The notes under the pieces: generated by a model
What the model was told of the DNA's origin: nothing
Seen by the model: only the letters and a program-made list of their open reading frames with translations
Database searches by the model: none
Part shown: piece after piece, positions 37,701 to 56,694 of the stretch
Numbering within the stretch: position 1 is the stretch's first letter
How the letters are laid out: every line of letters starts with the position of its first letter
Made by a program: the position numbers and the translations under genes
NCBI GenBank assembly: GCA_965249555.1
Contig: OZ252243.1
Span: 1,568,001-1,632,000 of the forward strand
Reading direction: 5' to 3'
DNA length: 64,000 nucleotides
From: Nitrosopumilus sp.
GTDB taxonomy: Archaea; Thermoproteota; Nitrososphaeria; Nitrososphaerales; Nitrosopumilaceae

Positions 37701-38090
37701 ATATCACTAACCCAGCAGGACAGACGTTACCAGGTCTGGGAGGACCAATATGGATACATATGGTCACAAAATGACTATGGCACCTGGTTGCAGATTACAA
37801 GACCAGATATACAACAAAGAAATGATCTGCCAACAAGCGTAATGACTAGAATTCATTCAAACTTTGCAAGCTTAGTAATTGATGAGCAGGATAGGGCAAC
37901 CTTAATCTTTGATAGTAAGGCAATTCAGGGAATTCTGGAAGAGTCATTCTCATATGATATGCCATTAAGACTGGACAGAGTATCAGATCCCGCATTGCTG
38001 GAATCACTATCCATACAAGAGATGCTGGCCCAGGAGATGCTGTGTGACTGTATGATATATGATGACTCTGATCTTAGCTGGAATGACTAG
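16713..38090 (+). CDS. Giant secreted surface/adhesin-like protein (~7100 aa; FN3, Big, DUF5011-like and unnamed modules)
   Basis: Uninterrupted 21.4-kb ORF. Signal peptide MHSFLCLAFASLLAVSLVLGSAEA from ATG 16761 (probable start). Same modules and same ~350-aa C-terminal domain as the first giant gene. Confidence 0.92.
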   Translation: MAWPHLSYNPPLQAVNMHSFLCLAFASLLAVSLVLGSAEAFPVIITPSTYVDGQTAIKPGSFNITVDDSLRLTATFVPRQAGDWRITSDVLDHIVPIVPIDGSVAQSQVDSGNPLEVNRQLSVGFSGHIVLSFKPSGASEFAKVASGLVLIHPNPPVLRVAGVTPTSITLEWDDVDGAISYTVWIDGNDSERTTDASITFDELDPGTEYRFISRSSAGLLTSVISAPLDVTTLAVTPLSATITYADDQTALAENIFAVILPFPGNEVNVWISPLETGTLRFESGNSGKNVPVVSGEDQTVTRPLLHGDDNIVISSDGTEVARISITTELDPDEPVYAEGQAAIREGSLRYELAGNGSINVHFVPTEAGNFVFRHGGSAASIFVTNLGAKVTIIFPVGHDYDDDVIVELDDVKAARMNVVTPPEDGVPIQAGSFVITDTINADALRVEFVPLKEGTFTVTAGDTSETVDVSAGDVSESTPKGTEITVGYEFDDNVILSFGGKDAARIHVTTGPTPLVPSAPSLRITGTTHDTVTLSWDAVHRADTYTLTRTLGSNPAVTVLSGIADLTFTDKNLAAETDYTYSLTAINSVGPSEPSEDTVTTDAAPTPPDTPTLVAGVTTHNTVSLSWNEPTDADRYILTRTAGTVITEIPVTGGTHTDDALKSGVQYTYSIRAVSAIGASADSNDVTVDTIKVPVLSTTPTYIDGQSAIDETFEITIVDDNTIAVSFDAKVDGEYYVVWGDSQTSPASIVGGNSANVEIIIDNYDGAIILFFDIDGDVDDEDQEIGSQEVARQVVPAVISPIKDGTLSVTDDADGIITVSLTPAFAGTFSVSTNSLESEKIPGVPDTQIDITLDVGHGFAEDVLVSFNNIIVAGIFVTTVPDAPALVLGPVTSTSITLSWNSVDNADSYTLTRIVADGDDVTVFSGDALTATDDNLSPDAEYRYAITATTPEGRTGAISAELAVDIGSAVESFGVIVDGDGASVSFTPLVPGDFTVGYGDDPDNDVPISVAPGKLSAKLTAIKVGYNFNGPVTLSLDNDIIGRILIVTEPPPTTLDATAVTDTSITLAWPSQPEVQEYRLYRNGALVVATGELSYTDTGLDSNTAYTYHIESHNDVSTTSDRSADLDVTTLIEPPRLVAGEITTTSVELTWDAVDGAHDYFLYRDGVDIASVTGTTHKVTELAAGTEYSFTAESRSIDSVTSPLSSPLSVRTVPDTPALRVTGTTFDTITLSWGPVNGAASYTLTRVVEGDDVTVFSGDALTATDENLSPATSYNYIITATTSGGTSAPSAEFAASTASAVPIITTSSQIVNTPSITIAGTAESGKTVELFQGETSAGTTTADGTGAFSFEVTLADGANSFTATASDGTDTSAPSSPVVITLDTEKPLITVLGSDETIELTAADTYAEPGATVEDNDPAYSEDVTVAGNTPDTSVIRVYTVTYNAPADAAGNEPDQQSIVITVSDTTPPTFDVDTNTDDYSTLVPFAGTYTQGIITNAFDISGIASGTVGGESVNVHVSAEYAVTYTVTDNNGQAATITETVTVEDDEEKPVITPLGSSETIIVSETDTYTEPGATVKDNDPTYAGTVTVAGDTPDTSVVGEYTVTYTAPPDAAGNIPDEKSIVISIVDPPTSPPATIRTLSVSSTTHDSITLSWDAVATAASYTVTRIVNGGANDVEVFSGDALTATDEGLAPETTYRYTITATNSAGSSTSLEFSLNTAAIPAAPAAPVLSVTSATDTTVSFSWGAVEGADSYTLTRVVADGSDVPVPTTPELTATDENLAPETSYNYIITATNAGGTTPSATFEATTSAPPAPATPVFSTVVSATHNSINLSWSAVAGADSYTLTRVAESGNNVRVFSGDALTFTNAGLDPDTAYNYIIMATNSAGTSEPSDPFTATTSTAPPTLVIHDTPTLVTGIITYNTVSLSWGESTGADSYILTRTAGTDTVEIPVTGGTTVSYTDDDVKPSTTYTYSIKAVSASGDSADSNDVIATTIPVPILSTTPTYAVDQSAIVGTSFEIIRIDDDTITVSFDAINDGEYYAQWGESETSPTTITGGNSASVQIPIGDYAGVVILFFEDNEVARQQVPAVTSPIKDGTLSVTDDADGIITVSLTPAFAGAFSVGTHSLDSEKILGVPDTTIVITLYVGHGFAENVFVSFNNIIVARVFVTTVPETPALVLGAVTDTSIALSWGSVDNADRYTLTRTADGTDVIIVSGNVLTFTDEGLAAGTNYVYAITATTPEGRTSATSADLAVTIGSAAQSFDVIADGDDASISFTPLVPGDFTIGYGDDSSNDIDVPIAAEDVGEPSTSTVQVGYNFNGPVTLSLDNDIIGRILIVTEPPPTTLDATAVTDTSITLAWSSQLDVHEYQLYRNGALVVATGELSYTDTGLAAATVYTYHIESHNDVSTTSDRSADLDVTTLIEPPRLVAGEITTTSVELTWDAVDGAHDYFLYRDGVDIASVTGTTHKVTELAAGTEYSFTAESRSIDSVTSPLSSPLSVRTVPDTPALRVTGTTFDTITLSWSPVNGAASYTLTRVVEGDDVTVFSGDALTATDENLSPATSYNYIITATTSGGTSAPSAEFAASTASAVPIITTSSQIVNTPSITIAGTTESGKTVELFQGETSAGTTTADGTGNFSFEVTLADGANSFTATASDGTDTSAPSSPVVITLDTIPPIITVDPLTVTLPAGSSQPDLLAGVSTDDNSPVTTTGTVNVNTPGDYTITYDSTDGTNAAVSATRTYAVTAMLEPFVTVVRNDDNSITVTWRDIETDDGTYFAVVENTNSDELVMVGTGLTGNSHTFSDANRLASLNEGDRIGISGSTDGSINLDTLTFVDTEKPVITVLGSSDTIDVSEINTYTVPDATVTDNDPAYFEEVAVSGDTPDTSVIGVYTVTYTAPADAAGNKPDPQSVVISVVDPSISIGITYTEGQTAIEEGSFSVLVDSVFTDKVFVRFEPKNKGTYTAILDGVTRTVLVTEFTIDNRADIPFDYEDSYIGNIVLSFDDKEVARQTVMTGPAPDTIAPPVPIITTSSETVGLFPIIIEGGSTESGATVELFNGGTSVGTTTADGSGNFSFTVVVLTEGANSFTATASDGPNTSEASPAVVITLDTEKPVITVLGSSETIKVSETNTYTERGATVDDNDPAYSGIITVTGNIPDTRVVGKYTVTYTAPADAAGNAPDQQSIIITVNDSGEDTTPPVIAVDPPTVTLPAGLPQPDLTAGVSTDDNSPVVTSGTVNTIRPGNYTVTYDSTDASGNDAVSAIRTYTVSAPEYALTSAPHADGDKVILTFTSSKSGDFTLERAGSSPVDFAIEEGRTAETITEAVGYDYAGDIIISIRYGAEVARVSVTTGPALIVTAVRSPDNAVTLTWSNILGADYAIYVVEGGVNVKFTDSASPYHITIPEELARVDDSEGNQIGVAGITDGVSGEITFTTVPPKTPALDFTSTGTGITLSWDAVNGADSYTVTRVTESGNADVPITGLTATDESLTAGTEYRYTITSTSGELTSHPSAQFAATTLAAPQTVPTYAPDQTAIKAGSFKVEISPTATLVTFLPLMPGDYTVTLTDLPPKTRTFTSGDTGEILSYVFNLENHLTGDIALSFDGVNVVTHTVTIGPPTLGTGDITDTSIRIEWDSVNDNADYALFRIADDNFGIELETTAKLTATDKNLAADTGYTYAVRAAVGATSVLSDRFDARTAVIPDDTPPVITANPRTVTLPAGSPQPDLLAGVTTDDGSPVTASGAVNTDTPRNYVIIYDSADASGNAADPVTRIYAVTIVLEPFVTVVRNDDNSITVIWRDIETSDGTYSVVFKNPNSSLAFLIRTGLTGNSHTFSDAASIASLNKADRIGVSDGAGGSINFDTLTYTDAEKPVITVLGSTQTIDLTATDTYAEPGATVDDNDPDYSEEVTVTGDTPDTSVIGEYTVLYNAPADVAGNIPDEKSIVITISDITPPTFDVDGNTDDYSTRIPFGGTYAPGKIANKSDISGIASGTVGGKSVNVHVSAEYAVTYTVTDNNGQAATITETVTVGNDEEKPVITVLGSSETIAVSETNTYTEPGATVTDNDPAYSGIVTVTGNAPDTRVIGEYTVLYNAPADAAGNIPEQKSIIITVNDSGEDTTPPVIAVDPPTVILQAGSAQPVLLEGVTTNDNFPVTTSGNVDIDTPDDYIITYDSTDASGNDAVSAIRTYTVSAPVETITGVPTYAAGQTAIEAGSFKVEIRPTFTLVTFNPLVSGDYTVTLADLPPQTKSFSSDDAGKILDYVFNLESHFAGDIALSFDGANVVTHTVTTGPPALRVGTVTDTSIRIEWDSVDDDADYTMLRITDDNLGIRLATTAKLTATDEHLTADTEYTYAVRATVGATSVLSDRFDARTDVPPDIEKPVITVLGSSEIIKVSETNTYVELGATVTDNDPAYTGIVTVSGDPNTSVAGEYTVTYTAPSDAAGNIPEQKSIVITVRDTIAPAVPAINPLPATVNTPSFTIEGTAEAGTTITLFNGATPAGTVIADGSGSFSFAGVELSEGANSFTATASDGVNTSGPSPAIVITLDTETPPVPAITTPSETVSSSSFTIEGTAEAGTTVELFNEGSTVDTITADGDGNFSFAGVALNPGANTFTVTASDGPNTSDASSPVVITLDTETPAVPIITTSPATVNTPSFTIEGTAEAGTTVELFKGVTPAGTTTADSGSFSFTVTLTKGENSFTVTASDGPNTSDASSPVVITLDTEKPVITVLGSTQRIELTATNTYTEPGATVKDNDPAYSEEVTVSGTPDTSVAGKYTVTYTAPADAAGNTPDEKSIVITVSDTTPPTFDVDGNTVDYATAVPFGGPYTPGVITNQSDISGTAPGIVGGDSINVNTSGEYVVTYTVTDNNGLFTTITETVTVESDVTAPAVPAITTSPATVGASPITIDGGSTEAGATIELFNGATSAGTVIADGSGNFSFPRTVLSEGANSFTATASDGPNTSDASSPVVITLDTIPPEAPAITTSPATVDTPSITIEGTAEAGTIVELFKGGTSTGDTVTADSGAFSFTVTLTEGANSFTATATDGPNTSDASPAIVITLDTIAPVITVDKDSFSVELGETYTAFTYSANDNTDGDITDNVVVGDTVDTSVDNTYTVTFDVDDAAGNHAVTVTRTVTVTPDATVPTITVNEDSLSVELGGTYELFTFTANDNTDGIITGEVAVAGYPADTDTAGTYDVTFDVDDAAGNHAVTVARTVTVTDTTAPVITPAGSTQTIELTQTNTYTEQGAIVTDNDPVYTGTVAVTGATPDTRVVKEYTVTYTAPADAAGNTPDEKSIVITVVDTTAPEAPEITTSPATVNTPSFTIEGTAEAGTTVELFNEGSTVDTITADGDGNFSFAGVALDEGENSFTVTASDGPNTSASSSPVLITLDTTAPEAPEITTSPATVNTPSITIEGTAEAGTTVELLKGGTSTGDTVTADSGSFSFAVTLTDGANSFTATASDGPNTSAASSPVVITLDTETPAVPIITTSPATVNTPSITIEGTAEAGTTVELFKGVTPAGTTTADSGSFSFTVTLTKGENSFTATASDGPNTSDASPAVVITLDTIPPEAPEITTSPATVGSSSFTIDGTAEAGSTVELFRGVTSVDTVTDDGDGNFSFTVTLTDGENSFTATASDGPNTSDASPAVLITLDTISPSITVNEDSISVELGETYTPFTFTAADNTDGDITDDVVVGDTVDTNAANTYTVTFDVDDAAGNPAVTVTRTVTVTDTTPPVITPTGSTQRIELTATDTYTEQGAAVTDNDPAYSGTVAVSGDTPDTSSIGVYTVLYDAPDDAANNTPDQQSIVITVSDTTPPTFDVDGNTVDYATTVPFGGPYTQGIITNQSDISGTAPGIVGGETVNVNTSGEYAVTYTVTDNNGLFTTITETVTVESDVTAPAVPAITTSPATVGASPITIDGGSTEAGATITLFNGATSAGTVIADGSGNFSFPRTVLSEGANSFTATASDGPNTSDASSPVLITLDTIAPAVPEITTSPATVNTSSFTIEGTAEAGTTVELFNEGSTVDTITADSGSFSFTVTLTEGANSFTATATDGPNTSDASSPVVITLDTEKPVITVLGSTRTSELTATDTYTEQGATVKDNDPDYSETATPSGNTPDTSVVGVYTVLYDAPPDAAGNTPDQKSIVISVVDTTPPTFDVDGHTGDYSTAVPFGGTYTPGVINNQSDISGTAPGTVGGETVNVNASGEYVVTYTVTDNNGLFATITETVTVESDVTPPIITVTPEEITLELNSPAPVLLDGVTTDDGSTITTSGNVDVTTVGDYTITYSSTDGTNPADDKTRIYKVTAAPDTTEPTELPAPPTLVAGTITETRIEITWDAVNGAKFYSLYRDGNLITTVLDSALGDNLSYTDDVLTSGTSYTYHATSTNDAGTSDNSEDLVAATTIASTENPSLDDTEKPVITPAGSNTTIELTAINTYNIPGATVTDNDPNYSETVTVSGDTPDTSVIGVYTVTYTAPADAAGNTPDEKSIVISVVDTTPPTFDVDGNTADYATAVPFGGPYTLGVIANQSDISGIVSSDVGGETVNVDTSGDYVVTYTVTDNNGLSTIITETVTVESDVTAPPVPAITTPPATVNTPSITIEGTAEVGTTVELFNEGSTVDTITADGDGNFSFAGVALDEGANSFTARASDGVNTSGPSPAIVITLDTTPPVITVDPLTVTLQADSLQPDSLQPDLLKGVSADDGSTVTTTGNVDVNTQGDYDITYDSVDASDNAAESVTRTYTVPAQSTDDTDSGDGGITSVTPGTEKPKKKGGDSNEWKTKPTFGKHWNNQAVQLVDNGFVFNGMPLTITNNWHTDFNMTNSIIGDNNTVHIKGYATNGLKSVSLSLGVPEVGLKTNAESHIIVNVNSNYTSPAGYDIADIVHEQKEVLVNEDMTSASIDKVKCTSSDTAERCFDVTISFVIMAPLSHEVLAINAVDKQRYSTTTYINEGVEFTGEALLAAATHELKQKHGNQNPFETISLTQQDRRYQVWEDQYGYIWSQNDYGTWLQITRPDIQQRNDLPTSVMTRIHSNFASLVIDEQDRATLIFDSKAIQGILEESFSYDMPLRLDRVSDPALLESLSIQEMLAQEMLCDCMIYDDSDLSWND
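19919..23958 (+). repeat. ~4-kb near-identical duplicate of window positions ~1-4040
   Basis: Direct DNA identity at an offset of ~19,918 (e.g. TTGGATGTAACTACGCTTATAGAGCC at 170 and 20088). About 1.1 kb of it recurs at ~23660-24742. Confidence 0.9.
37040..38090 (+). repeat. C-terminal domain shared with the first giant gene (14765-15811)
   Basis: KKKGGDSNEWKTKPTFGKHW...EMLCDC.IYDDSD.SWND* is nearly identical in both proteins. Confidence 0.92.
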
Positions 38091-38196
38091 TTGTTTACCT
38101 TCATGTCGTACTCATATCATCAATTGCTGCAAAAAAAGGGGCAATTCCGTAGGATATGGCTGATTCAAAAAGATTGAAACCAGCATATTACAAAGT

Positions 38197-38289
38197 ATGA
38201 ATAATTGTCAATGTTGTGGCGTTGATGTAAGTGATAGATCAAAGAGATACATTGATGATGAATTAGTTTGTGTGAATTGTTTTGGGTAA
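38197..38289 (+). CDS. Putative 30-aa zinc-finger micro-protein
   Basis: Manual translation: MNNCQCCGVDVSDRSKRYIDDELVCVNCFG*, with two CxxC motifs. Below the ORF-track cutoff. Confidence 0.55.
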   Translation: MNNCQCCGVDVSDRSKRYIDDELVCVNCFG

Positions 38290-38296
38290 ATATCTG

Positions 38297-39643
38297 TTAA
38301 ACGAGATTTGGCATAATCATTCTTTTTAATTTCTCCAAACTTTTTTGAGTGCCAATATCACGTCTATACTCCAATTTACCTTTAACATATGTGTCAATAG
38401 CATTGTTAATTTGTAATGAAGCATCCTCTATACTATCTGAAACAACACTAAATGCACAAACCCGTGATTTTTTTAAGGTTTCATATTGGTGTGAGCCTGT
38501 TTTGATACAAGAGGAAAAAAATATCTTTACACCAAGATCATTAACTGCTTCTTCATTAATAGTAAAAGAAATTACCTCATTGCTTTTTTCTGGGTATTCA
38601 GTTGCCACCAAATATTTAGTAACACTTGCTTTTTTAATAAAAGAGACAACATCTTCTGATAGTGTCTTATTCCAAATATGTATTAATAATTCAGAAAAAG
38701 AACCATCAAGAATACTGAGAATATTTAGTCCTTCGGGATCACCAAAGCGTCCATTAAACTCCATAAATTTTATGCCATGTTTAGTTTTAAAAAATCCACC
38801 ATTAAGAACACCATTAAAAAAGAGATTTTTTGATCTCATTTCATTAATAATCTTCTGCATTATTAATTTACAATCCTCCAAGTCTTTATCACTCATAAAG
38901 GGAAGTTTTTTTTCTGAACTAGTAAAACATCCCATACCGCCTGTTCCTGCCCCTGTATCATCTTCAAATCTAAAGGGATAGTCGTAACTTGCAGGAGATA
39001 ATACGAGATGTTCACCATCAGTAATTCCCATAATTGTAAATTCTATACCAACTAGTTTTTCTACCAACAGAACCTTTTCATTATTCTTGAGAAGACTAGA
39101 AGCATAATTAATACAATCCTTATACGTTGATAAATGCTCAGGCATTACCTTGACACCTTTACCCCCTGTAAGTCCTTGAGGTTTTACTACTACATCAAGA
39201 CCTCTTGATTCAAATTCAGATATAGCATCTTCTAACTCTTCGACTTTACAAATAATCTTGTAAAAAGGTGTAAATTCAGGACATATCTCTTGCATCATTT
39301 GAATTGAATAAATTTTATCCCATTCAATACGTGTAGCTTCTTTTGTTCCGCCAATAGCTTTGAAATTATTTTCTAATAAAATATCAATAACACCATTTGC
39401 TAGTGGTTGGTCAGCACTTACAAAAGTATAATCTATATTGTGTTCTTTTACAAACTTTAACACTATATGTGGATCATTAACATCACCTACCAAATACGTC
39501 CCGCCTGATTTTTTGACACAGTTTATGATGAGTGGGTTTTTGTGAGAAATAATTGCATACAATTGTGTGTCTTCTGAGAGCCGTAGGGCAAAAGCACTTT
39601 CACGTCCTCCACTTCCAATGACGAGAAATTTCTTTCTGTTCAT
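38297..39643 (-). CDS. purD: PurD-like (phosphoribosylamine-glycine ligase family) ATP-grasp ligase, divergent
   Basis: GSGGRE, VVVKPQGLTGGKGV, TGGMG, EFNGRFGDPE and YRRDIG motifs present. Several substrate motifs deviate from canonical PurD (see findings). Confidence 0.75.
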   Translation of the reverse strand: MNRKKFLVIGSGGRESAFALRLSEDTQLYAIISHKNPLIINCVKKSGGTYLVGDVNDPHIVLKFVKEHNIDYTFVSADQPLANGVIDILLENNFKAIGGTKEATRIEWDKIYSIQMMQEICPEFTPFYKIICKVEELEDAISEFESRGLDVVVKPQGLTGGKGVKVMPEHLSTYKDCINYASSLLKNNEKVLLVEKLVGIEFTIMGITDGEHLVLSPASYDYPFRFEDDTGAGTGGMGCFTSSEKKLPFMSDKDLEDCKLIMQKIINEMRSKNLFFNGVLNGGFFKTKHGIKFMEFNGRFGDPEGLNILSILDGSFSELLIHIWNKTLSEDVVSFIKKASVTKYLVATEYPEKSNEVISFTINEEAVNDLGVKIFFSSCIKTGSHQYETLKKSRVCAFSVVSDSIEDASLQINNAIDTYVKGKLEYRRDIGTQKSLEKLKRMIMPNLV

Positions 39644-39650
39644 ATCTTAA

Positions 39651-39803
39651 TTATTTTCTCTTTTTTCCATTTTTCCAATTGGTTCTATTAGTGCATTCCA
39701 CATTATTACAAACTTTAGGATTTTCATTTTTACTATACCAAATTGATTCACAAATTGCACATTTATGCTTCCAATAATTCCCTTCTACTTTTGTACTCAA
39801 CAT
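39651..39803 (-). CDS. Putative 50-aa zinc-ribbon protein immediately upstream of purD-like gene
   Basis: Manual translation: MLSTKVEGNYWKHKCAICESIWYSKNENPKVCNNVECTNRTNWKNGKKRK*. Pattern CxxC..W...PxxC....C....W with a basic tail. Stop codon lies 7 nt before the purD-like ATG. Confidence 0.7.
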   Translation of the reverse strand: MLSTKVEGNYWKHKCAICESIWYSKNENPKVCNNVECTNRTNWKNGKKRK

Positions 39804-39825
39804 AATTTTTTAGAAATTATGCTTT

Positions 39826-39877
39826 ATAAACTTTATATGTTTATACTTAAAATGTTTATATAAACATTATATGTTTA
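39826..39877. promoter_or_regulatory. Palindromic operator-like cluster in a divergent promoter region
   Basis: Two copies of ATAAAC(T/A)TTATATGTTTA (39826, 39860), each a TAAAC-N7-GTTTA dyad, plus a perfect 18-bp palindrome AATGTTTATATAAACATT (39851-39868). Confidence 0.6.
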
Positions 39878-39883
39878 ATAATT

Positions 39884-39973
39884 ATGCAAACAAAAGAATC
39901 AAGATTTGAGGAAATTTATGAAGATACACAAGCTTTGATTGTTCGAATGAATTTCTATTACAATATAGATTGA
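39884..39973 (+). CDS. Possible 29-aa ORF ending inside the first mini-array repeat
   Basis: MQTKESRFEEIYEDTQALIVRMNFYYNID*. No recognisable family; may be spurious. Confidence 0.25.
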   Translation: MQTKESRFEEIYEDTQALIVRMNFYYNID

Positions 39974-40117
39974 AACTTCTGATGGTACTAAACAATCTGA
40001 GTATTATCCAACTTCAAATGAATTTCTATTACAATAAAGATTAAAACCGTGTTAGCGGTAAATGTAATAGAGTAATTACATCTTCGAATGAATTTCTATT
40101 ACAATAAAGATTGAAAC
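39941..40117 (+). CRISPR. Mini CRISPR array: 3 x 36-bp repeats, 2 spacers (35 and 34 nt)
   Basis: Repeats GTTCGAATGAATTTCTATTACAATATAGATTGAAAC (39941), CTTCAAATGAATTTCTATTACAATAAAGATTAAAAC (40012) and CTTCGAATGAATTTCTATTACAATAAAGATTGAAAC (40082). Canonical ATTGAAAC 3' end and regular 70-71 bp period. Confidence 0.8.
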
Positions 40118-40203
40118 CCACTTTGGTGGAGTAAAAAAAACAAAAACCAAATGTTCTTGACTGATTATATTGATGGCTATTAGACATTTAAATAATGAAT
40201 TTT

Positions 40204-41687
40204 ATAGTTATTAAGCACTTAGATGTATTTTGCCATCTCAGAGAACATGTTCAATTCCCTTATTCTCCATGTCTCAAAGCATGTGAGAAAGACTGAGATC
40301 ATCCTCATGCCCTGATCACTCTTCATCTGCCCGCGAACATTTCTCTGCATCACGCACTTTCGAATGGAATTCTCTGCATCATTGTTAGTTGACGGGACAT
40401 CACCATCCATGACAAACGTAAACATGCTGTTCCTTGCAGTCTTTAGCTTCTTGCCAAACTGAACCATCTCCGTATCGCCTTTCAAATATCGTGCAATGAT
40501 ACGGTCCAGCTGTTTTAGTAAATCATCCCTGTACATTTCCCGCCGTTTTGTATGACGATTACCTACACTCCAAACCCTGGCATGACCTAGCATCTCTGAG
40601 AGTTTCTCATATAGAATCCTGGCCTTTTTGTCCTTTGATTTTATTGCCAGATATTTGGCATCGCGCTGCAGGTGTGCGGTGCATCTCTGCTTTGTGTTAT
40701 CACAAAATACTGTCCTGTACGGAGCATATCCGTCAGACACTAGGGTTCCTTTGAATTTCTTCCAGTACTTTTTTAGAACATTGGCACCTCTGCTGTACTC
40801 CAAGGCATACTGTGCACTAGTCTTGCTTCTTGCAACCCACATCCATCCAGTATTTCCATCAATTGAAAATCCTGTCTCATCGATTCCGAGAATCTTTTCA
40901 GTCACGATTTCGCTGTGGATTGTATTGTAAAATGACTCTAACATCACACTACCGTTGCGAAGAATGGATTGTACGGTTGTATTGCTGATTTCTAATCCAT
41001 ATCTTTCATAGAGTGTGGTTCTGATGGTATCGTATGGCATTCTCTTTGAGAACAGTGAGACGACCTCACGTATCACTGAACCATCAAAACATCCATGTGA
41101 TGGAAGGTTTCCCGTGGTTTGAAAATTATCAGAACAGTCCATGCAGATGTATTGATTCAAAACATGCTCAGTTATACCGTAGGGTGTTGGTGGGGGAATC
41201 TCAACCATTATCCTTTTGCAGGTTTTGGTTTGATGAATATTTTCACTACCGCATTTAGGACATGCATCTGATCTGTGGTGTTTGGTGCTAGTTGGTCTGA
41301 ATTTCTGTGTCTTGCCAACGTGTCCTGCTATTCCACCACGTCTTGATTTGCCTGGCTGTCTGTGTTGTCTTTTTTGCTTTCTCCATTCAAGGGAATTCTT
41401 TGATGGCGGAGAGTGAGCATTCTCATAATATGACAGCTTTTTTTGCAGTTCCTTGTTTGATTCTATGAGATTCTCTATGACTAGTTTTTGTTGTTTTGAC
41501 TCTTTTTGTAGTTCCTTGTTTGATTCTATGAGATTCCCTGTGATTAGTTTTTGTTGTTTTATCTCTGCTTGTAGTTGTATGATGATTTTCTCATGACCAC
41601 AACCTGACATGTTTTGTATGATGATTTAGTTGATCTTAGATCTTTTTGTGTAATAGTGTTGATTTGTGCGTGAAGGTTGATACATAC
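40204..41687 (-). mobile_element. IS66-family element (single-ORF, ISBst12-like), copy 1
   Basis: 8-bp TSD TGAATTTT at 40196-40203 and 41688-41695. One end is ...TTGATACATAC; the other TIR is degenerate (ATAGTTATTAA vs GTATGAATCAA in copy 2). Confidence 0.9.
40219..41610 (-). CDS. IS66-family DDE transposase
   Basis: N-terminal coiled coil, CPKC/CMDC zinc finger, and DETG, VSDGY, QRCTAHL and PSTNNDAE motifs. Confidence 0.92.
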   Translation of the reverse strand: MSGCGHEKIIIQLQAEIKQQKLITGNLIESNKELQKESKQQKLVIENLIESNKELQKKLSYYENAHSPPSKNSLEWRKQKRQHRQPGKSRRGGIAGHVGKTQKFRPTSTKHHRSDACPKCGSENIHQTKTCKRIMVEIPPPTPYGITEHVLNQYICMDCSDNFQTTGNLPSHGCFDGSVIREVVSLFSKRMPYDTIRTTLYERYGLEISNTTVQSILRNGSVMLESFYNTIHSEIVTEKILGIDETGFSIDGNTGWMWVARSKTSAQYALEYSRGANVLKKYWKKFKGTLVSDGYAPYRTVFCDNTKQRCTAHLQRDAKYLAIKSKDKKARILYEKLSEMLGHARVWSVGNRHTKRREMYRDDLLKQLDRIIARYLKGDTEMVQFGKKLKTARNSMFTFVMDGDVPSTNNDAENSIRKCVMQRNVRGQMKSDQGMRMISVFLTCFETWRIRELNMFSEMAKYI

Positions 41688-41706
41688 TGAATTTTAGTGC
41701 TAGACA

Positions 41707-41862
41707 ATGATAAAGTATTATTTTTTTATATTCCTAATACCACTGTTTTTAATCCCGGCATTTGCAGAGCCTGACTCGATTGCTGGTAGTGGCAGTACTG
41801 GCGGTGATGGCTTTCAATCCTATGATAGTTCAATTCAAACGCTCCATTATAGTGGATTGTGA
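41707..41862 (+). pseudogene. 5' remnant of a secreted-protein gene running into the CRISPR array
   Basis: MIKYYFFIFLIPLFLIPAFA-EPDSIAGSGSTGGDG reads into repeat 1. Removing IS66 copy 1 places TTTAAATA (40187-40194) ~20 nt before the ATG. Confidence 0.6.
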
Positions 41863-44800
41863 ATTCCCCTGTTTTGTCTTTCAATCCTATGATAGTTCAA
41901 TTCAAACAACATTAAAGACATCAAAGATGGCGGTGCGTATCTTCTTTCAATCCTATGATAGTTCAATTCAAACCATCAAAGTCGATGATACTACTGGTGA
42001 GATTATAGACTTTCAATCCTATGATAGTTCAATTCAAACAGGAGTGGTTGGATGGTCTGGTAGGATAGGGGATGGCTTTCAATCCTATGATAGTTCAATT
42101 CAAACTAGTGATTCCAAAGTGGACAGTCTGGCTCTTTGGGTACTTTCAATCCTATGATAGTTCAATTCAAATTTTTAGTAGCCTCTAATCAAAGACCAAA
42201 TGGACTTCACTTTCAATCCTATGATAGTTCAATTCAAACGAAGAAGTGGCTTTTCATATGCAAATGTGTCACGCCTTTCAATCCTATGATAGTTCAATTC
42301 AAACTGTTTTTGGTGTCGCCGGATTGTGTGGAATTTACGGCTTTCAATCCTATGATAGTTCAATTCAAACCTGTGCTTTGGCAATACTTCCAGGTCTGAT
42401 ATTTTCTTTCAATCCTATGATAGTTCAATTCAAACGATGCTCACTCTGCACATTACATCAAGTGGATAGAGTACTTTCAATCCTATGATAGTTCAATTCA
42501 AACTAAACACTGGTGATCAAATCAAGATAGAAGGTGTGCCCTTTCAATCCTATGATAGTTCAATTCAAACTCGTGCAATGCCGCCACCAGGCCCGCCGGC
42601 AATTCGCTTTCAATCCTATGATAGTTCAATTCAAACTAGAATCAAATTGGCAACTGGTGCAACCGCTGGAACCTTTCAATCCTATGATAGTTCAATTCAA
42701 ACCTTCCTGTTCAAGTCTTTCTGTGATGGTCTCATCAGTCTTTCAATCCTATGATAGTTCAATTCAAACTTTTGGTAATCTATCACCGTATGGATATTTT
42801 CTTTTCCCTTTCAATCCTATGATAGTTCAATTCAAACGCTTTATTGTTTTTTCCATTATGATCATCATACATTCTTTCAATCCTATGATAGTTCAATTCA
42901 AACTTCTCTATTTCGTCCCGGGTGTATTTGCTGAGGATACTTTCAATCCTATGATAGTTCAATTCAAACTTCGAGATAATCGCCTTGCAAGTGCTGCAAT
43001 CTTTCTTCTTTCAATCCTATGATAGTTCAATTCAAACTTAGATCTTGATCGATTCTAAAAGTTAAAGCCTGTTCCTTTCAATCCTATGATAGTTCAATTC
43101 AAACACTCAAGGAAGTACAAGATAGATTTTCTGTAGCTGCCTTTCAATCCTATGATAGTTCAATTCAAACGGTCAAGATGCTTGGCTGTTGATCCCAGCA
43201 GATAGACTTTCAATCCTATGATAGTTCAATTCAAACGCTGTTCTGTAAATTTAATATCAAATACAATAGTCTCTTTCAATCCTATGATAGTTCAATTCAA
43301 ACTTGTGGTTGGGTTGTCCTCGGTTGAAGGATCAGTGCTCTTTCAATCCTATGATAGTTCAATTCAAACGATTAATCACTATTGGCACGATTCCTTAACT
43401 TCTTCTTTCAATCCTATGATAGTTCAATTCAAACACAGATTTAATAAATTCTCTAACAAGAGGTCCTTAGACTTTCAATCCTATGATAGTTCAATTCAAA
43501 CTCATCAAACAGATGGAGGGTATCATCAGACATGAACTCTTTCAATCCTATGATAGTTCAATTCAAACATCTAGAAATGCTTCAATTAGAAAACAGGTGA
43601 TTACACACTTTCAATCCTATGATAGTTCAATTCAAACCTGTAACATAGATAGCTTCTATTGTCTTACCTTGTATCTTTCAATCCTATGATAGTTCAATTC
43701 AAACCAATCCGATAAAGGAAGAACGAGTTGGAAGTAGAAACTTTCAATCCTATGATAGTTCAATTCAAACCAAGGAATCCCACAGCCACCACTAGCAAAT
43801 GAAGGCTTTCAATCCTATGATAGTTCAATTCAAACTTGGCAATATTTTCAAGTTGTATCAAATTTCTGACCAGCTTTCAATCCTATGATAGTTCAATTCA
43901 AACTGGTGAAAGATGGTTTTATTCAGGTTCTTCTATAGCCTTTCAATCCTATGATAGTTCAATTCAAACGATGGTTCTTTGGATTTTTTTGAGGGTCTTA
44001 TGATGTCTTTCAATCCTATGATAGTTCAATTCAAACCAATTGCAATTATGCTGGGAATCGGTGTTACGATCCTCTTTCAATCCTATGATAGTTCAATTCA
44101 AACAGACAGGGGACGTATCTTTATTATCGGACATCTTAGCTTTCAATCCTATGATAGTTCAATTCAAACTTGTGGTTGGTGAAGTGAATACCTCGTCTTC
44201 CCTGTGCTTTCAATCCTATGATAGTTCAATTCAAACCTGCACTCAAGCGAATGTCCTCCTATCAGGTTGCATCTTTCAATCCTATGATAGTTCAATTCAA
44301 ACGTAATTTTGCTACTGTTTCCTTGATGTTCAAAAGACTTTCAATCCTATGATAGTTCAATTCAAACTCACCAATCAACGGTAACGCTTTACTTGGGGTT
44401 GCCTTTCAATCCTATGATAGTTCAATTCAAACCTGACATTGACGACTGACGGATCTCTTCCATACATCTTTCAATCCTATGATAGTTCAATTCAAACCGT
44501 CTAGAGGATAGCAGGTCGGGTAGTGCATCCAGTCCTTTCAATCCTATGATAGTTCAATTCAAACTACTAATCTGACCTTGTCCCCCTTGCCCGATAATCA
44601 TCTTTCAATCCTATGATAGTTCAATTCAAACCAGACAAACAAGCATTGATCTCAGGATTCCAAACTCCTTTCAATCCTATGATAGTTCAATTCAAACGGC
44701 TATGCCAAATCGTGGAAGAAAGAAAAGATACGCTTTCAATCCTATGATAGTTCAATTCAAACATGTAGAATAACACCAAACTACATGGAATTAGTTGATC

Positions 44801-45821
44801 TCTCTTTCAATCCTATGATAGTTCAATTCAAACGCAACGTCACTGCCTGATACTGGCACAAAGGGATTGACTTTCAATCCTATGATAGTTCAATTCAAAC
44901 CAACTTGTTGGAGCCATCGATGCCTCCTATTCCAACTTTCAATCCTATGATAGTTCAATTCAAACACAAACACAGTTCGGATGCGTGTCCGTGATTGGCT
45001 GCTTTCAATCCTATGATAGTTCAATTCAAACATTTTTGAAGATATGATGTGTGTTTGTCGGAATTTTCTTTCAATCCTATGATAGTTCAATTCAAACGCT
45101 GAATCTATTTGTGTTTCGCTTGCCTGTAGATCACTTTCAATCCTATGATAGTTCAATTCAAACCTTGTAGCAGCATGTTATCGTGCATTTGCTTATCTCT
45201 TTCAATCCTATGATAGTTCAATTCAAACCAATTTTTGAAATTGATAGTGATGAACCCTCGAACCTTTCAATCCTATGATAGTTCAATTCAAACGAGGCCT
45301 CCTTCATCAGGCGGAGCGGGGACTTGAGACTTTCAATCCTATGATAGTTCAATTCAAACTTACACTTGTTATAATTGTGGGATCATGCATGTTAGCTTTC
45401 AATCCTATGATAGTTCAATTCAAACTAGTTTGTATCTATTCCCACAGCCGCCTTCATCTTCTTTCAATCCTATGATAGTTCAATTCAAACCTCTACGCAG
45501 TCGAGAACAAGAATCGTGCAGGCGATACTTTCAATCCTATGATAGTTCAATTCAAACCAGAAGACAACTAAACAAATACCAACTCGCAGAACTCTTTCAA
45601 TCCTATGATAGTTCAATTCAAACTGACGACAAGGTGGATGATGCGTGCAGACCATTTCACTTTCAATCCTATGATAGTTCAATTCAAACGCAAGGCCCAC
45701 CAGGAGAAGATGGTGCAGGAGGTAGCTTTCAATCCTATGATAGTTCAATTCAAACAGGAGAAAGATATCTTACAGTCATATAGCGTATAATCTTTCAATC
45801 CTATGATAGTTCAATTCAAAC
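41811..45821 (-). CRISPR. CRISPR array, 61 repeats / 60 spacers; repeat GTTTGAATTGAACTATCATAGGATTGAAAG (30 bp)
   Basis: The + strand shows CTTTCAATCCTATGATAGTTCAATTCAAAC from 41811 to 45792-45821, counted by eye, with spacers of ~35-41 nt. One variant repeat at 42143 (terminal C>T). Orientation inferred from the ATTGAAAG 3' end and the leader on the cas4 side. Confidence 0.97.
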
Positions 45822-45966
45822 CCGCCAAATTCATACCTAAATCCCAATGCTAAATATTTGTTTCTTCATCTATCTCTGATCGTGTCCTTTCCTTATAAGA
45901 TCAGCAAAAAACATTACTGTATCCAAATATTGTAAAATAGTTTAAGATAAAAACTGTTCTGTTGGA
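45822..45966. promoter_or_regulatory. CRISPR leader / divergent promoter region for array and cas4
   Basis: AT-rich non-coding stretch between the last repeat and cas4. TATA-like CTTATAAG and TTTAAGAT, and GGAG before cas4. Confidence 0.65.
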
Positions 45967-46464
45967 GTGAATATGTTGAATGACACAGAACTAACTGGAA
46001 CACAGATAAATTATTACTTTGTATGTAAAAGAAAGCTATGGCTACACTCTCATAATATTTCTTTTGAGTCAAGCTCAGAACTTGTAAAACTTGGAACTCT
46101 CATACACAAGAATTCGTACAAGAGAAAGAAAAAAGAGATACGTATAGGCAGTATATCCATTGACTATGTCAATAAAGGAGAAATACATGAGGTAAAAAAA
46201 TCAGATAAAATACATGATGCACATACGTATCAAATATTATACTATATCTACTATCTAAAAAAACTTGGCATTAACACAACTGGAATACTTGAGTATCCCA
46301 AACTCAAAAAAACAGTAAAGATAAACCTTACAAAACAAAAGCAGGATTTTCTAGATAAAACAATATATGATGCATTAAAGATAATCTCTGCAAAAAAGCC
46401 ACCTATTGCAGAATACAAGCCAATATGCGATAAATGTGCATATGTTGAATACTGTTGGTCATGA
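45967..46464 (+). CDS. cas4: CRISPR-associated exonuclease Cas4
   Basis: YYFVCKRKLWL, EVKKS, H.YQI.YY and C-terminal CxxCxYxxxC Fe-S cysteines. Start could be ATG 45973. Confidence 0.95.
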   Translation: MNMLNDTELTGTQINYYFVCKRKLWLHSHNISFESSSELVKLGTLIHKNSYKRKKKEIRIGSISIDYVNKGEIHEVKKSDKIHDAHTYQILYYIYYLKKLGINTTGILEYPKLKKTVKINLTKQKQDFLDKTIYDALKIISAKKPPIAEYKPICDKCAYVEYCWS

Positions 46465-46482
46465 AAGATTACTATATATTTA

Positions 46483-47387
46483 GGTGATTGGGTACCTACT
46501 GCCCCTAGATTATTATGGAATATTTCACAAAAATAATGGATGGATTTTGTATCATTTGCAAAAACAATCTCTGATGAATCATTGTTAATACAATTCCTAG
46601 AATCAAGATGGGGTGAAAATCTTTCCTGCATTTTTTGTAAAAACAAGACCCTCTACACCATGAAAGGCAGAGACAGAATGAGATGCACAAAATGCCGAAA
46701 AGACTTCAAACCGTTTTCCAGCTCCAAATTCTCATTGGTTAGAATTTCATATTCCAAATGGCTCTCACTGATCAAGCTCTTTGAGCTATCCGTATCTGCC
46801 AAGACTGCATCAGAGCAGATGCATCTGAGTTACAAAACAGTTCTGAAAGCATTTGATGCAATCAGATATTCCATACTTGAGGAATTGGCAAATACCGACA
46901 AGGTTCTAAAGGGCCAAATTGAGGCTGACGAGGCGTACTTTGGAGGAAAAAGGAAGGGAAATCGCGGACGTGGTGCCAAAAACAAGACCATTGTGTTTGG
47001 CATCTTGGAGAGAAAAGGGAGGGTTCACGTTGAGATTGTAAATAACGTTAAAGCTAAAACCCTTCTGAAAAGTACAATTAGAAAAGTGAAAAAAGGTAGT
47101 ATCGTGTACACTGACAAGTGGAAGGGATATGACTCGCTTGTGTTTCATGGATACAAACATCTCTCAGTAGATCACAACAAGATGTTTGGCAAAGGGGATG
47201 TTTACATTAATGGAATTGAAGGCTTTTGGAGCTTTACCAAAGAGAACATGGCAAAGTATCACGGGGTGAGCTCAGGCAAATTTTTACTGTACCTCAAGGA
47301 GATGGAATGGAGATACAATAACAGGAATAGTGATTTGTTTGATTTATTGCTGAGAAATATGTTGGGGGCAGTAGATCCCTAATCGCC
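46483..47387 (+). mobile_element. IS1595-family (ISXO2-like) insertion sequence
   Basis: 23-bp imperfect TIRs GGTGATTGGGTACCTACTGCCCC / GGGGCAGTAGATCCCTAATCGCC. 8-bp TSD TATATTTA at 46475-46482 and 47388-47395. Confidence 0.95.
46540..47382 (+). CDS. IS1595-family transposase
   Basis: CIFC/CTKC zinc ribbon, IEADEAYFGG, GRG, YTDKW..Y, INGIEGFWS and LYLKE motifs. Confidence 0.93.
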   Translation: MDFVSFAKTISDESLLIQFLESRWGENLSCIFCKNKTLYTMKGRDRMRCTKCRKDFKPFSSSKFSLVRISYSKWLSLIKLFELSVSAKTASEQMHLSYKTVLKAFDAIRYSILEELANTDKVLKGQIEADEAYFGGKRKGNRGRGAKNKTIVFGILERKGRVHVEIVNNVKAKTLLKSTIRKVKKGSIVYTDKWKGYDSLVFHGYKHLSVDHNKMFGKGDVYINGIEGFWSFTKENMAKYHGVSSGKFLLYLKEMEWRYNNRNSDLFDLLLRNMLGAVDP

Positions 47388-48359
47388 TATATTTAATAGT
47401 GGTAGGATTTCACGATCACAAAATACCATTCAAATCCTATCAAAAGATGATACAAAAAAATCAATTCCTGTAATGGATGTCAGGGCTCTCCATATCTTTG
47501 GTCAATGTGACTTTAATTCTGCATTAATATCATTTCTAAATACAAAGGGAATTGCAATACACTTTTACAATTATTATGGAAATTATGCTGGAAGTTATTA
47601 TCCTCGTGAGAAGCTTCTCTCCGGACTTGTTATAGTAAAGCAAGTGCAGCATTATCTAGAGCAGTACAAAAGATTATACATTGCATCTGAATTCATCAAA
47701 ACTGCAACACATAACATGCTTGCAAATCTGCGTTATTACAAATCAAAGAAAAAAGATGTAACAGAGTATATTGATAGAATTCAAAGCCTGCAGCAGCAAA
47801 TACCAAAATGCAAAACAGTTGATGAGTTAATGGGAATTGAGGGAAATTGCCGGAACGTCTACTATGATTCATTTGATAACTTTCTAAGAGATGGGTTTGA
47901 GCTGGAAAAAAGGACAAGGATGCCACCACATAATATGCTAAATTCACTAATCTCATTTGGTAATAGTATAATGTACAACGATGTCTTAACTGAGATTTAT
48001 CAGTCACAGCTAAACTCTACTGTAAGCTATCTACACGAACCAGGATATCGACGCCATTCATTGTCCTTGGATATTGCCGAAGTATTCAAGCCTGTAGTTG
48101 TAGATAAGACCATCTTTAAGATGATAAATGGCAAGATGATAAGTGAGAAAGATTTTGATGACTCTTTGAATGGTTGCTATTTGGTAGAATCTGGAAGAAA
48201 AGCCTTTGTATCAGAGTACAATGAAAAGATGGAAAGTACAATCTATATATCTGCATTAAAGCGAAATGTAAGTTATAGACGACTGATAAGACTAGAGTGC
48301 CATAAAATAGTAAAGCATATTGTAGAAGATATACGATATACAGGATTTAGGCAAAAATA

Positions 48360-48629
48360 ATGTATGCCATACTAGTATATGATATTGCCGTAGAACGCAT
48401 TGATGCAGTACGAATCACAACAAAGCAATATCTAAACTGGATTCAAAATTCAGTTTTTGAAGGGGAGATAACAGTGTCTGGTCTTGCAGAACTAAAATCC
48501 AAAATATCTAGTCTAATTGATGTGTCTGAGGATTCAGTATTGGTATTTACTGTGAATAATCCAAAGTGGATAGAAAAAACAGTTATTGGTATTGATAAGA
48601 ATGATATAAGGTATGAATCAAGCACTTAG
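48360..48629 (+). CDS. cas2: Cas2 with IS-derived C-terminus
   Basis: MYAILVYDI, WIQNSVFEGEI and DSV motifs. The last residues (R)YESST* come from the IS66 end. Confidence 0.92.
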   Translation: MYAILVYDIAVERIDAVRITTKQYLNWIQNSVFEGEITVSGLAELKSKISSLIDVSEDSVLVFTVNNPKWIEKTVIGIDKNDIRYESST

Positions 48630-50031
48630 ATGTATTTTGCCATCTCAGAAAACATGTTCAATTCCCTTATTCTCCATGTCTCAAAGCATGTGAGAAAGAC
48701 TGAGATCATCCTCATGCCCTGATCACTCTTCATCTGCCCGCGAACATTCCTCTGCATCACGCACTTTCGAATGGAATTCTCTGCATCATTGTTAGTTGAC
48801 GGGACATCGCCATCCATGACAAACGTAAACATGCTGTTCCTTGCAGTCTTTAGCTTCTTGCCAAACTGAACCATCTCCGTATCACCTTTCAAATATCGTG
48901 CAATGATACGGTCCAGCTGTTTTAGTAAATCATTCCTGTACGTTTCCCGCCGTTTTGTATGACGATTACCTACACTCCAAACCCTGGCATGACCTAGCAT
49001 CCCTGAGAGTTTCTCATATAGAATCCTGGCCTTTTTGTCCTGTGATTTTATTGCCAGATATTTGGCATCGCGCTGCAGGTGTGCGGTGCATCTCTGCTTT
49101 GTGTTATCACAAAATACTGTCCTGTACGGAGCATATCCGTCAGACACTAGGGTTCCTTTGAATTTCTTCCAGTACTTTTTTAGAACATTGGCACCTCTGC
49201 TGTACTCCAAGGCATACTGTGCACTAGTCTTGCTTCTTGCAACCCACATCCATCCAGTATTTCCATCAATTGAAAATCCTGTCTCATCGATTCCGAGAAT
49301 ATTTTCAGTCACGATTTCGCTGTGGATTGTATTGTAAAATGACTCTAACATCACACTACCGTTGCGAAGAATGGATTGTACGGTTGTATTGCTGATTTCT
49401 AATCCATATCTTTCATAGAGTGTGGTTCTGATAGCATCGTATGTCAATCTCTTTGAGAACAGTGAGACGACCTCACGTATCACTGAACCATCAAAACATC
49501 CATGTAGTGGAAGGTTTCCCGTGGTTTGAAAATTATCAGAACAGTCCATGCAGATGTATTGATTCAAAACATGCTCAGTTATACCGTAGGGTGTTGGTGG
49601 AGGAATCTCAACCATTATCCTTTTGCAGGTTTTGGTTTGATGAATATTTTCACTACCGCATTTGGGACATGCATCTGATCTGTGGTGTTTGGTGCTAGTT
49701 GGTCTGAATTTCTGTGTCTTGCCAACGTGTCCTGCTATTCCACCACGTCTTGATTTGCCTGGCTGTCTGTGTTGTCTTTTTTGCTTTCTCCATTCAAGGG
49801 AATTCTTTGATGGCGGAGAGTGCGCATTCTCATAATATGACAGCTTTTTTTGCAGTTCCTTGTTTGATTCTATGAGATTTTCTATGATTAGTTTTAGTTG
49901 TTTTATCTCTGCTTGCAGCTGTATGATGATTTTCTCATGACCACAACCTGACATGTTTTGTATGATGATTTAGTTGATCTTAGATCTTTTTGTGTAATAG
50001 TGTTGATTTGTGCGTGAAGGTTGATACATAC
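48611..50031 (-). mobile_element. IS66-family element (single-ORF), copy 2
   Basis: TIRs GTATGAATCAA / TTGATACATAC. 8-bp TSD GATATAAG at 48603-48610 and 50032-50039. Confidence 0.95.
48626..49954 (-). CDS. IS66-family DDE transposase
   Basis: Near-identical to 40219-41610 but 21 aa shorter in the coiled coil. Confidence 0.92.
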   Translation of the reverse strand: MSGCGHEKIIIQLQAEIKQLKLIIENLIESNKELQKKLSYYENAHSPPSKNSLEWRKQKRQHRQPGKSRRGGIAGHVGKTQKFRPTSTKHHRSDACPKCGSENIHQTKTCKRIMVEIPPPTPYGITEHVLNQYICMDCSDNFQTTGNLPLHGCFDGSVIREVVSLFSKRLTYDAIRTTLYERYGLEISNTTVQSILRNGSVMLESFYNTIHSEIVTENILGIDETGFSIDGNTGWMWVARSKTSAQYALEYSRGANVLKKYWKKFKGTLVSDGYAPYRTVFCDNTKQRCTAHLQRDAKYLAIKSQDKKARILYEKLSGMLGHARVWSVGNRHTKRRETYRNDLLKQLDRIIARYLKGDTEMVQFGKKLKTARNSMFTFVMDGDVPSTNNDAENSIRKCVMQRNVRGQMKSDQGMRMISVFLTCFETWRIRELNMFSEMAKYI

Positions 50032-50115
50032 GATATAAGTAATATATTATAAATTCTAATTTATTTTTGTTTAATATGATCTAATTTAATTATGATACTA
50101 TTTCATGTGGTATAA

Positions 50116-50808
50116 TTGACTAGATTTTTTGTCCAATATAAAATACAAGGAGAAACGAAATTTCCACTAGATTATCGTTCTGCGTTTATGGCTCTAATCA
50201 AGACATCACTTGATGCAAACATTGGACATACAATTGGTATGTTTCAAAAAACACCACTTTGTCTTGCCATCAGATTTGATAAAAAACCTGAAATCTCAGA
50301 TAATATCATAAAAATAGGAAATACATTAAAGGTTTACATTTCATCTCCAGATCACATACTTGCAACAAATATCTATAATGGATTGTTGAATATTAAGAAT
50401 TTCACAATATTTGAATCTGCAATAGAAAAACCAAAGTTTGTGTACTTGAATGAGTATAGATTTTACCAGAGACAAGTCAAGATGTTTTACACTCTTTCAC
50501 CAATAGTGATACGCAATTATAAGGACAAAACAAAATATGTTACACCTACAGATCCAGAATTCATGGATTCATTAAAGAAAGCACTAACAGAACAGTGGGT
50601 GATGTATAGAGGTGATGATATTGGTGGGTTTACATTAAACATCATAAAATACAAAAAAGTTGTAATGACGCATTATGGTGGACTGGTACTAGGTTTTACT
50701 GGACTCTTTACTCTGGAAGCTGATTCCAAGGTTCTGGAGTTTTTCTACAAGGCAGGAATTGGATACAGGCGAAGCAATGGCTTTGGATTTATCGAGGTGG
50801 ACAGATAA
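50116..50808 (+). CDS. cas6: CRISPR endoribonuclease Cas6
   Basis: P.DYR near the N-terminus, TLSPIV, and C-terminal G-rich loop GIGYRRSNGFG. Confidence 0.92.
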   Translation: MTRFFVQYKIQGETKFPLDYRSAFMALIKTSLDANIGHTIGMFQKTPLCLAIRFDKKPEISDNIIKIGNTLKVYISSPDHILATNIYNGLLNIKNFTIFESAIEKPKFVYLNEYRFYQRQVKMFYTLSPIVIRNYKDKTKYVTPTDPEFMDSLKKALTEQWVMYRGDDIGGFTLNIIKYKKVVMTHYGGLVLGFTGLFTLEADSKVLEFFYKAGIGYRRSNGFGFIEVDR

Positions 50809-53559: not shown

Positions 53560-53561
53560 TA

Positions 53562-56683: not shown

Positions 56684-56694
56684 TGTTATCTATT

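Follow-up and report, generated by a model that had tools for sequence, protein, structure and literature searches.

A short, degenerate CRISPR array beside the type I-B locus of a Nitrosopumilus sp. probably represents the vestige of a second, lost array of type I-B-like character, namely its leader-distal end; most likely it is a common relic and not a novel gene for a regulatory RNA. The window analysed here comprises 64,000 nucleotides (contig OZ252243.1 of assembly GCA_965249555.1, positions 1,568,001 to 1,632,000 of the forward strand) of a genome that is complete in a single contig of 2,230,439 bp with 34.4% G+C. Vestigial arrays are a known kind of element, and the stub described here is a new and well-documented instance of it. 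In general, the case calls for caution: a degenerate short array beside a type I-B locus may mimic a regulator of the CreA/CreR type, while comparison with congeners reveals the remnant of a second array. Moreover, the locus documents the reshaping of CRISPR-Cas in an IS-rich ammonia-oxidising genus, in which paired convergent arrays occur, one module appears to have been lost, an effector was apparently replaced beside a conserved adaptation module, and insertion sequences (IS) struck in cas1 and at cas2.

Structure of the mini-array

The mini-array occupies positions 39941-40117 of the forward strand and comprises three 36-nt repeats (R1 to R3) with two spacers (S1, S2) between them (Table 1). 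A previous reading of the window, made from the sequence only, had proposed a three-repeat element of this kind running convergently with the main array, and the present analysis bears this out to the exact base. Tandem Repeats Finder returns the array with a period of 70, 2.5 copies and a score of 212, and the repeats are indeed 6 nt longer than those of the main array (36 vs 30 nt). The convergent orientation follows from the position of the ATTGAAAN 3' end and is independently supported by two congeners, G014 and G342, since in both of them cas1-cas2-cas4 lie upstream of the related array in the same sense. A search for the repeat throughout the genome, which the sequence-only reading had proposed as a check, yielded just these 3 copies in the 2.23 Mb (<=8 substitutions, both strands); hence, the array is far beyond chance. 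As the generic definition of CRISPR has it, at least three direct repeats of 23-47 nt are separated by unique spacers of similar length.

The three copies differ mutually, as had been observed before, at 4 variable positions (34/36 identical for both R1/R3 and R2/R3, 32/36 for R1/R2), whereas 76/76 repeats of the intact G014 array share one identical 37-nt sequence. The 8-nt handle ATTGAAAC at the 3' end is intact in R1 and R3 and mutated in R2 (ATTAAAAC). On the contrary, the CTAT/ATAG dyad, which had been regarded as a feature shared with the main repeat, did not hold up: it is present in R1 only, while R2, R3 and 8/8 aligned copies from relatives read AAAG at this site, and it thus reflects a private A-to-T change instead of a shared feature.

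S1 and S2 are unrelated, as 261/2000 shuffles align equally well, and an origin of the mini-array by duplication of a repeat-spacer unit was rejected because this likeness is not significant. No further degenerate repeat copies were found in the flanks, where the best sliding identity of 17-18/36 corresponds to the mode of 300 random genome windows. The repeats are unstructured, with minimum free energies of 0 to -3.1 kcal/mol (z -0.5 to +1.2 vs shuffles), and the changes that distinguish the repeats of G014 and G342 are, by our own reading, not compensatory. By the same kind of reading, nucleotides 15-23 of S2 (40062-40070) represent TGTAATAGA, which is exactly complementary to TCTATTACA of the repeats; in a transcript, S2 could thus pair with a neighbouring repeat, and the chance probability of such a complementarity is roughly estimated at ~0.01.

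Table 1. Features of the mini-array, its surroundings and the related orphan arrays (window positions except in the last line).
Feature	Position	Strand	Description
Repeat R1	39941-39976	+	36 nt; 3' end ATTGAAAC; private A-to-T change giving the CTAT/ATAG dyad
Spacer S1	39977-40011	+	35 nt; unique; target not found
Repeat R2	40012-40047	+	36 nt; two private changes, one in the handle (ATTAAAAC)
Spacer S2	40048-40081	+	34 nt; unique; target not found
Repeat R3	40082-40117	+	36 nt; 3' 25 nt equal to the family core of G014, G007 and G017
purD	38297-39643	-	upstream of the mini-array
Small zinc-ribbon ORF, ~50 aa	39651-39803	-	CxxC...CxxxxC motifs; directly upstream of purD, overlapping the purD start
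AT-rich intergenic stretch upstream of R1	39804-39940		TATA-like words, palindrome, tandem
Trailer, mini-array to IS	40118-40204		87 nt; ends in the 9-bp target duplication TGAATTTTA (40196-40204)
IS66-family insertion sequence	40205-41687	-	transposase ORF 40219-41610; between the two arrays
Main array, distal flank	41697-41810	-	possible very degenerate terminal repeat and one spacer-length stretch
Main array	41811-45821	-	61 repeats of 30 nt, 60 spacers of 35-41 nt
Main array leader	45822-45966	-	adjoins cas4
Resident cas locus	45967-56476	+	sole cas locus of the genome
Orphan arrays of G007	L019:8265-10547 and L020:10243-10571		36-nt family

Affiliation of the repeat and its intact arrays in congeners

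A loose alignment of the mini-array repeat with the main repeat had been suggested, and in part it stands, in that a GTT.GAAT start and a GATTGAAA. end are common to both; overall, however, R1-R3 agree with the resident 30-nt repeat in 17-19/36 columns only. Between the 8-nt 3' ends, ATTGAAAC in R1 and R3 and ATTGAAAG in the resident repeat, only the last base differs. R1-R3 are identical at 32/37 positions to the repeat of array A in G014 and at 30/36 to the array repeat of G342. As judged from these alignments, the mini-array repeat is a member of a separate 36/37-nt family and no degenerate copy of the resident repeat.

Relatives of the repeat were found by BLAST against 41 genomes (this genome and 40 relatives) and by pattern searches. 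The 25-nt 3' core of the family, TTTCTATTACAATAAAGATTGAAAC, occurs in 7/121 genomes of the genus, this one included (<=2 mismatches), and its copies number 76 in G014, 13 in G007, 3 in G017, 3 here, and 1 each in G009, G450 and G304. A 35-nt repeat pattern is present in 3/401 genomes of the order (<=3 mismatches), and among 185,579 species, each represented by one genome, the exact 25-nt core is found in three records only, all of them Nitrosopumilus.

Both long arrays of this family that were examined (2/2, in G014 and G342) lie directly downstream of cas6b/cas1/cas2/cas4. In G342, cas6b, cas1, cas2 and cas4 precede 158 repeats of a 36-nt variant. In G014, array A with its 76 repeats of 37 nt is located downstream of a type I module of the cas6b type, which features cas6b (PF17262/PF17955), cas3, cas5, cas7 (PF05107) and a gene for 571 aa on the - strand, while cas1, cas2 and cas4 on the + strand lead into the array. 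One interval of array A (L015:4723-4820) measures ~98 nt vs the usual 35-40 nt, for which either a lost repeat or an insertion might account. The 37-nt array (+) of G014 meets a 94-repeat array of 30-nt repeats (-) tail to tail at a distance of 47 nt. The repeat of this second array, GTTTGAATCGAACTATTGTAGGATTGAAAT, is close to the main repeat of the genome studied here, and its leader adjoins cas4, cas1 and cas2 genes whose proteins are 68-76% identical to those of the window. G014, whose two arrays and two modules reside on one 1.86-Mb contig, is a metagenome-assembled genome with 9% contamination. The sequence-only reading had named a long array of the repeat, equipped with cas genes of its own, as evidence against its proposal; arrays of this kind exist in congeners, but not in this genome.

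In addition, short relics of the 36/37-nt family are recurrent in the genus, as indicated by the distribution of its repeats. In G017, two family repeats lie 4.7 kb from the distal end of a 58-repeat array of 30-nt repeats, in the same orientation, and in G009 a single family copy is situated beside a transposase fragment. G007 harbours three orphan family arrays of 6, 2 and 5 repeats, which are identical within each array, and this genome shows no match to the Cas1, Cas6, Cas6b, PF05107 Cas7, DevR or RAMP families. In the solitary copies of other species, the 3' 25-nt core deviates by 0-2 mismatches only, a degree of preservation that could hint at a function.

Absence of the cognate module and proposed history of the stub

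The genome lacks the module that accompanies the family elsewhere. There are 0 matches to Cas6b, and neither a PF05107 Cas7 nor a RAMP protein was found in the genome; its single effector module comprises one PF01881 Cas6 and one DevR-type Cas7, both inside the window. The mini-array therefore lacks what marks an active locus, namely a cognate cas module and leader, adjacent or elsewhere in the genome, and repeats that are identical along the array. The cas6b-linked long arrays of the family, the layout of G014 and the module missing here jointly support the relic of a lost second system, which had been one of two explanations offered by the sequence-only reading.

Without the IS, the layout here is that of G014, with an array of the 36/37-nt type running into an array of the 30-nt type. 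The locus shares with the paired convergent I-B loci of G014 both repeat families, their relative orientation and, on the 30-nt side, the adaptation genes, at 68-76% protein identity. It differs in that the window is devoid of the cas6b module and of all but 3 repeats, and in that the effector on the 30-nt side belongs to another family, with a Cas7 of the DevR type. In comparison with vestigial or orphan arrays, as reported for instance in passages of PMC6563490 on thaumarchaeal integrated elements, the stub is likewise short, composed of non-identical repeats and devoid of cognate cas genes in its genome, its repeat family likewise has full systems in relatives, and its neighbourhood is IS-rich. 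Unlike these, however, it faces, tail to tail, a still large array whose repeats are of another family, and its handle is almost the same as the one in the resident repeat.

The proposed history would begin with an ancestor, or a donor of the locus, in which two systems stood side by side with their arrays tail to tail: on the one hand, a cas6b-type module that had cas1-cas2-cas4 genes and an array of 36/37-nt repeats of its own, and on the other, the system with the array of 30-nt repeats. A deletion or rearrangement in the IS-rich genome would then have eliminated the cas6b module together with the leader and every repeat except the final three, leaving the stub abutting an unrelated gene pair, the small zinc-ribbon ORF and purD. 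The three distal repeats would have survived because they abutted the other array. After the loss, the repeats presumably drifted apart at their 4 variable positions, and an IS66 element would have inserted between the stub and the main array.

The insertion itself is plainly visible. The IS66 element is flanked by its 9-bp target duplication, the second copy of which lies at 41688-41696, and it is one of ~27 near-full copies in the genome. On its far side, a possible terminal repeat of the main array at ~41746-41775 is identical at 14/30 positions by our own count; without the IS, about 136 nt would separate R3 from this degenerate repeat. The DNA contigs of three runs show the stub region unaltered, with one contig per run spanning 39400-40238 at 0 differences before it enters the IS.

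The left side is less amenable to reconstruction. The left flank with purD is not syntenic with the CRISPR locus of any relative, and the left junction of the stub is, by gene order, a synteny breakpoint. The orthologues of purD and of the diphthamide-synthase gene are far apart and far from the CRISPR loci in G014 and G009, so that a deletion cannot be mapped from their scattered positions. Consequently, the deletion boundaries are not reconstructable and gain is not distinguishable from loss on this flank. Against the relic reading stands that the dual tail-to-tail layout is known from one genome only, that of G014. Furthermore, repeats as well preserved as these (32-34/36) with two intact handles imply that the stub is recent or else subject to some constraint.

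The breakpoint on the left would also suit a fragment that arrived separately from a virus, a plasmid, an integrated element or another strain and never was part of a local second system. Stand-alone arrays have been described on thaumarchaeal integrated elements, where they are thought to result from the loss of cas genes (in passages of PMC6563490), and the 13 family repeats of G007 likewise lie in three orphan arrays in a genome with 0/6 of the cas families matched. However, the only mobile-element gene beside the stub is that of the IS66 element, which carries a target duplication of its own, and the 25-nt core was not found in 2.9 million viral contigs. The placement and direction of the stub with respect to the 30-nt array match the arrangement in G014, as would not be expected of an insertion at random. 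An import of this kind is therefore very unlikely.

Spacer targets and the question of a regulatory role

Regulatory elements of the CreA/CreR type are characterised, according to passages of bioRxiv 10.1101/2023.03.10.532045 and PMC10120712, by repeat-like flanks derived from the resident repeat and usually one spacer, by a position conserved between or beside the cas genes, and by targets with partial seed complementarity and a PAM in a cas or toxin promoter of the locus. In such a role, the stub would provide a degenerate crRNA that guides Cascade to repress a cas promoter or toxin gene by partial complementarity. At first sight, the mini-array resembles these elements, as it is a short array with degenerate, non-identical repeats and a conserved 8-nt handle near a type I-B locus; moreover, such elements were found in about 17-19% of I-B loci (as given in part of PMC10120712) and were demonstrated experimentally for types I-B, I-E and V-A (as given in part of bioRxiv 10.1101/2023.03.10.532045).

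None of the defining features is found in the mini-array, however. Its repeats are not derived from the resident repeat but stem from another family than that of the resident array, and it has two full-length spacers vs one pseudo-spacer. It lies outside the cas cluster, past the distal end of the main array, at 5.8 kb from cas4 and ~10 kb from cas6-cas8, and its spacers, position and flanks are not conserved in relatives.

Nor does it have a partially complementary promoter target that could be found. No target with seed and PAM was detected for S1 or S2 beyond chance, in the locus or in the genome, and the host-genome search for spacer targets that had been proposed from the sequence thus ended at chance level. 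The 10-nt seed of S2 has no other copy in the genome, while that of S1 is a common word with 57 matches, the best of which extends to 23/35, and shuffled spacers reach at least 20 in 89/200 trials. Within 38000-57200, S1 shows 7 sites with at least 10/12 seed matches (shuffles: mean 3.2, maximum 12), all of which are inside coding or IS sequence, and S2 shows 0 sites at this threshold. Seed matches in intergenic promoters are absent, with the qualification that the PAM of the resident system is not known. The best 5'-anchored match, of nucleotides 1-14 of S1 to genome positions 1067024-1067037 (-), lies in an 87-aa ORF with TGA at the PAM position and reaches 20/35 overall; it was rejected as chance. 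In blastn-short searches against the genome, both spacers gave chance-level matches only. Hence, the regulatory crRNA source that the sequence-only reading had entertained departs from the known elements in every feature that could be tested, and such a function is highly improbable.

Searches for foreign targets were equally blank. Neither S1 nor S2 resembles any of the 85 spacers of the relatives' family arrays; exact matches in viral contigs number 0 and 0, as do matches of the first 24 nt of either spacer in metagenome contigs, and S1 has 0 matches at <=3 mismatches in 300 genomes of the taxonomic family. A blastn search of S1-R2-S2 against GenBank phages gave matches to Fusobacterium and Bacteroides phages at E=1 only, which were rejected. 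These blanks say little, though, as three leader-proximal spacers of the main array that served as control had 0/3 exact matches in viral contigs as well. Most thaumarchaeal spacers match nothing known, as stated in a passage of PMC6563490.

Possible residual use by the resident system

The upstream region of the stub might permit transcription. Between the small ORF and R1, the AT-rich stretch contains a TTTATATG tandem of 3.9 copies (39832-39867 region) and a perfect 16-bp palindrome, ATGTTTATATAAACAT, at 39852-39867, and TATA-like words are located, by our own reading, 30-90 nt upstream of R1. The tandem and palindrome may represent a bidirectional TATA region or a binding site; promoter activity of 39804-39940 towards the mini-array is only inferred. 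The region resembles no leader or flank of the relatives' arrays, and Rfam at gathering thresholds returned 0 matches in the whole window. RNAs of the stub might still be produced, and since R1 and R3 preserve the ATTGAAAC handle, the resident Cas6 might process them; the crRNAs predicted for this case would start with AUUGAAAC followed by S1 and with AUUAAAAC followed by S2.

Taken further, the stub could be a working orphan defence array, which is transcribed from the AT-rich region, the repeats of which are cut 8 nt from their 3' ends by the resident Cas6 (PF01881 type), and the S1 and S2 crRNAs of which serve the DevR-type Cascade as guides shared across modules and aimed at mobile elements. 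Besides the handle, which is one base from the resident one, and the TATA-like words, this would agree with the lengths of the spacers (35 and 34 nt), which are within or just below the main range of 35-41 nt. It would also agree with the loose coupling of repeat and effector that is suggested in the genus, where similar 30-nt repeats go along with different effectors, of the DevR type here and of the PF05107 type in G014 and G017. For Pyrococcus furiosus, moreover, a single Cas6 is reported to supply multiple effector complexes with the AUUGAAAG tag (PMC4436667). The near-identity of the handles together with the loose coupling thus makes residual processing and loading by the resident system, and with it some cross-use, conceivable.

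On the other hand, the repeat body upstream of the handle is unlike the resident one, the cognate nuclease in relatives belongs to a different family, Cas6b, the handle of R2 is mutated, no homology to a leader was found, and the adaptation module is damaged. That no protospacer was found also speaks against a working array, but this holds with the reservation set by the main-array control. Altogether, a functional defence array is unlikely, and the vestigial array end remains the preferred reading, presumably with no dedicated function at present.

A broader variant extends to the solitary cores in at least 5 other species: a non-cognate Cas6 would process their RNAs and those of the stub, which would then enter a Cascade that belongs to a different effector family. 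This is distinctly unlikely. If true, such non-cognate loading would constitute natural guide sharing, or decoy titration, between swapped I-B modules. Likewise, use of the stub by the resident Cascade would provide a natural test of the tolerance of Cas6 and Cascade to foreign repeats that share the 8-nt handle only.

Erosion of the resident cas locus and neighbouring sequences

The cas locus around the relic is itself eroded by IS elements, to judge from its gene order. It comprises cas4, an IS1595 transposase gene, cas1 with its 5' end cut, cas2, an IS66 element and cas6 (PF01881), followed by a cas8b-like gene, cas7 (DevR type), cas5 and cas3. The gene of the IS1595-family transposase (46540-47382) is inserted between cas4 and cas1 and reaches right up to the beginning of cas1. 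An open cas1 frame follows immediately after the transposase stop and encodes N-terminal Cas1 residues without a start codon; since its first ATG/GTG/TTG is at 47473, the start of cas1 was apparently lost to the insertion. The second IS66 (48617-50031) begins in the last codons of cas2 and splits the adaptation genes from cas6-cas8-cas7-cas5-cas3. As far as these insertions indicate, the adaptation module of the resident locus is damaged.

The loci of G014 and G017 contain no counterpart of the effector module at 50116-56476 (PF01881 Cas6 at 50116-50808, CXXC Cas8b-like protein, DevR-type Cas7), while cas4, cas1 and cas2 of both are 66-76% identical to those of the window, and DevR was detected in 1/5 genomes searched. 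This distribution suggests that the effector module was swapped while the adaptation module and repeat beside it were conserved. Likewise, the fact that 30-nt repeats are served by differing effector families suggests the loose coupling considered above.

Several minor observations concern the main repeat and its spacers. Solitary repeats of the main 30-nt type occur at G000:C1:534974-535003 (+) with 6 mismatches and at G000:C1:1334754-1334783 (-) with 5, both far from any cas gene. The former is closer to the repeat of array B in G014 than to the resident one, and the latter lies ~1.3 kb from an IS66 copy. Spacer 30 of the main array, counted from the leader (43836-43873), matches G000:C1:641671-641708 at 30/38 nt with the mismatches clustered at its 5' end, and a Cas1 homologue, encoded in a 567-aa frame (644225-645067), lies 2.5 kb away from this site. 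This second Cas1 homologue looks like a casposase, and the match may possibly represent an old hit on an integrated casposon.

Two further observations relate to the left flank. DNA similar to the small zinc-ribbon ORF occurs at G000:C1:1237564-1237648 of this genome and in G007. A single ORF of 7125 aa at 16713-38090 contains many internal repeats of about 260-1000 nt, and in G007 a homologue of its C-terminal part is situated 3.5 kb away from one orphan array.
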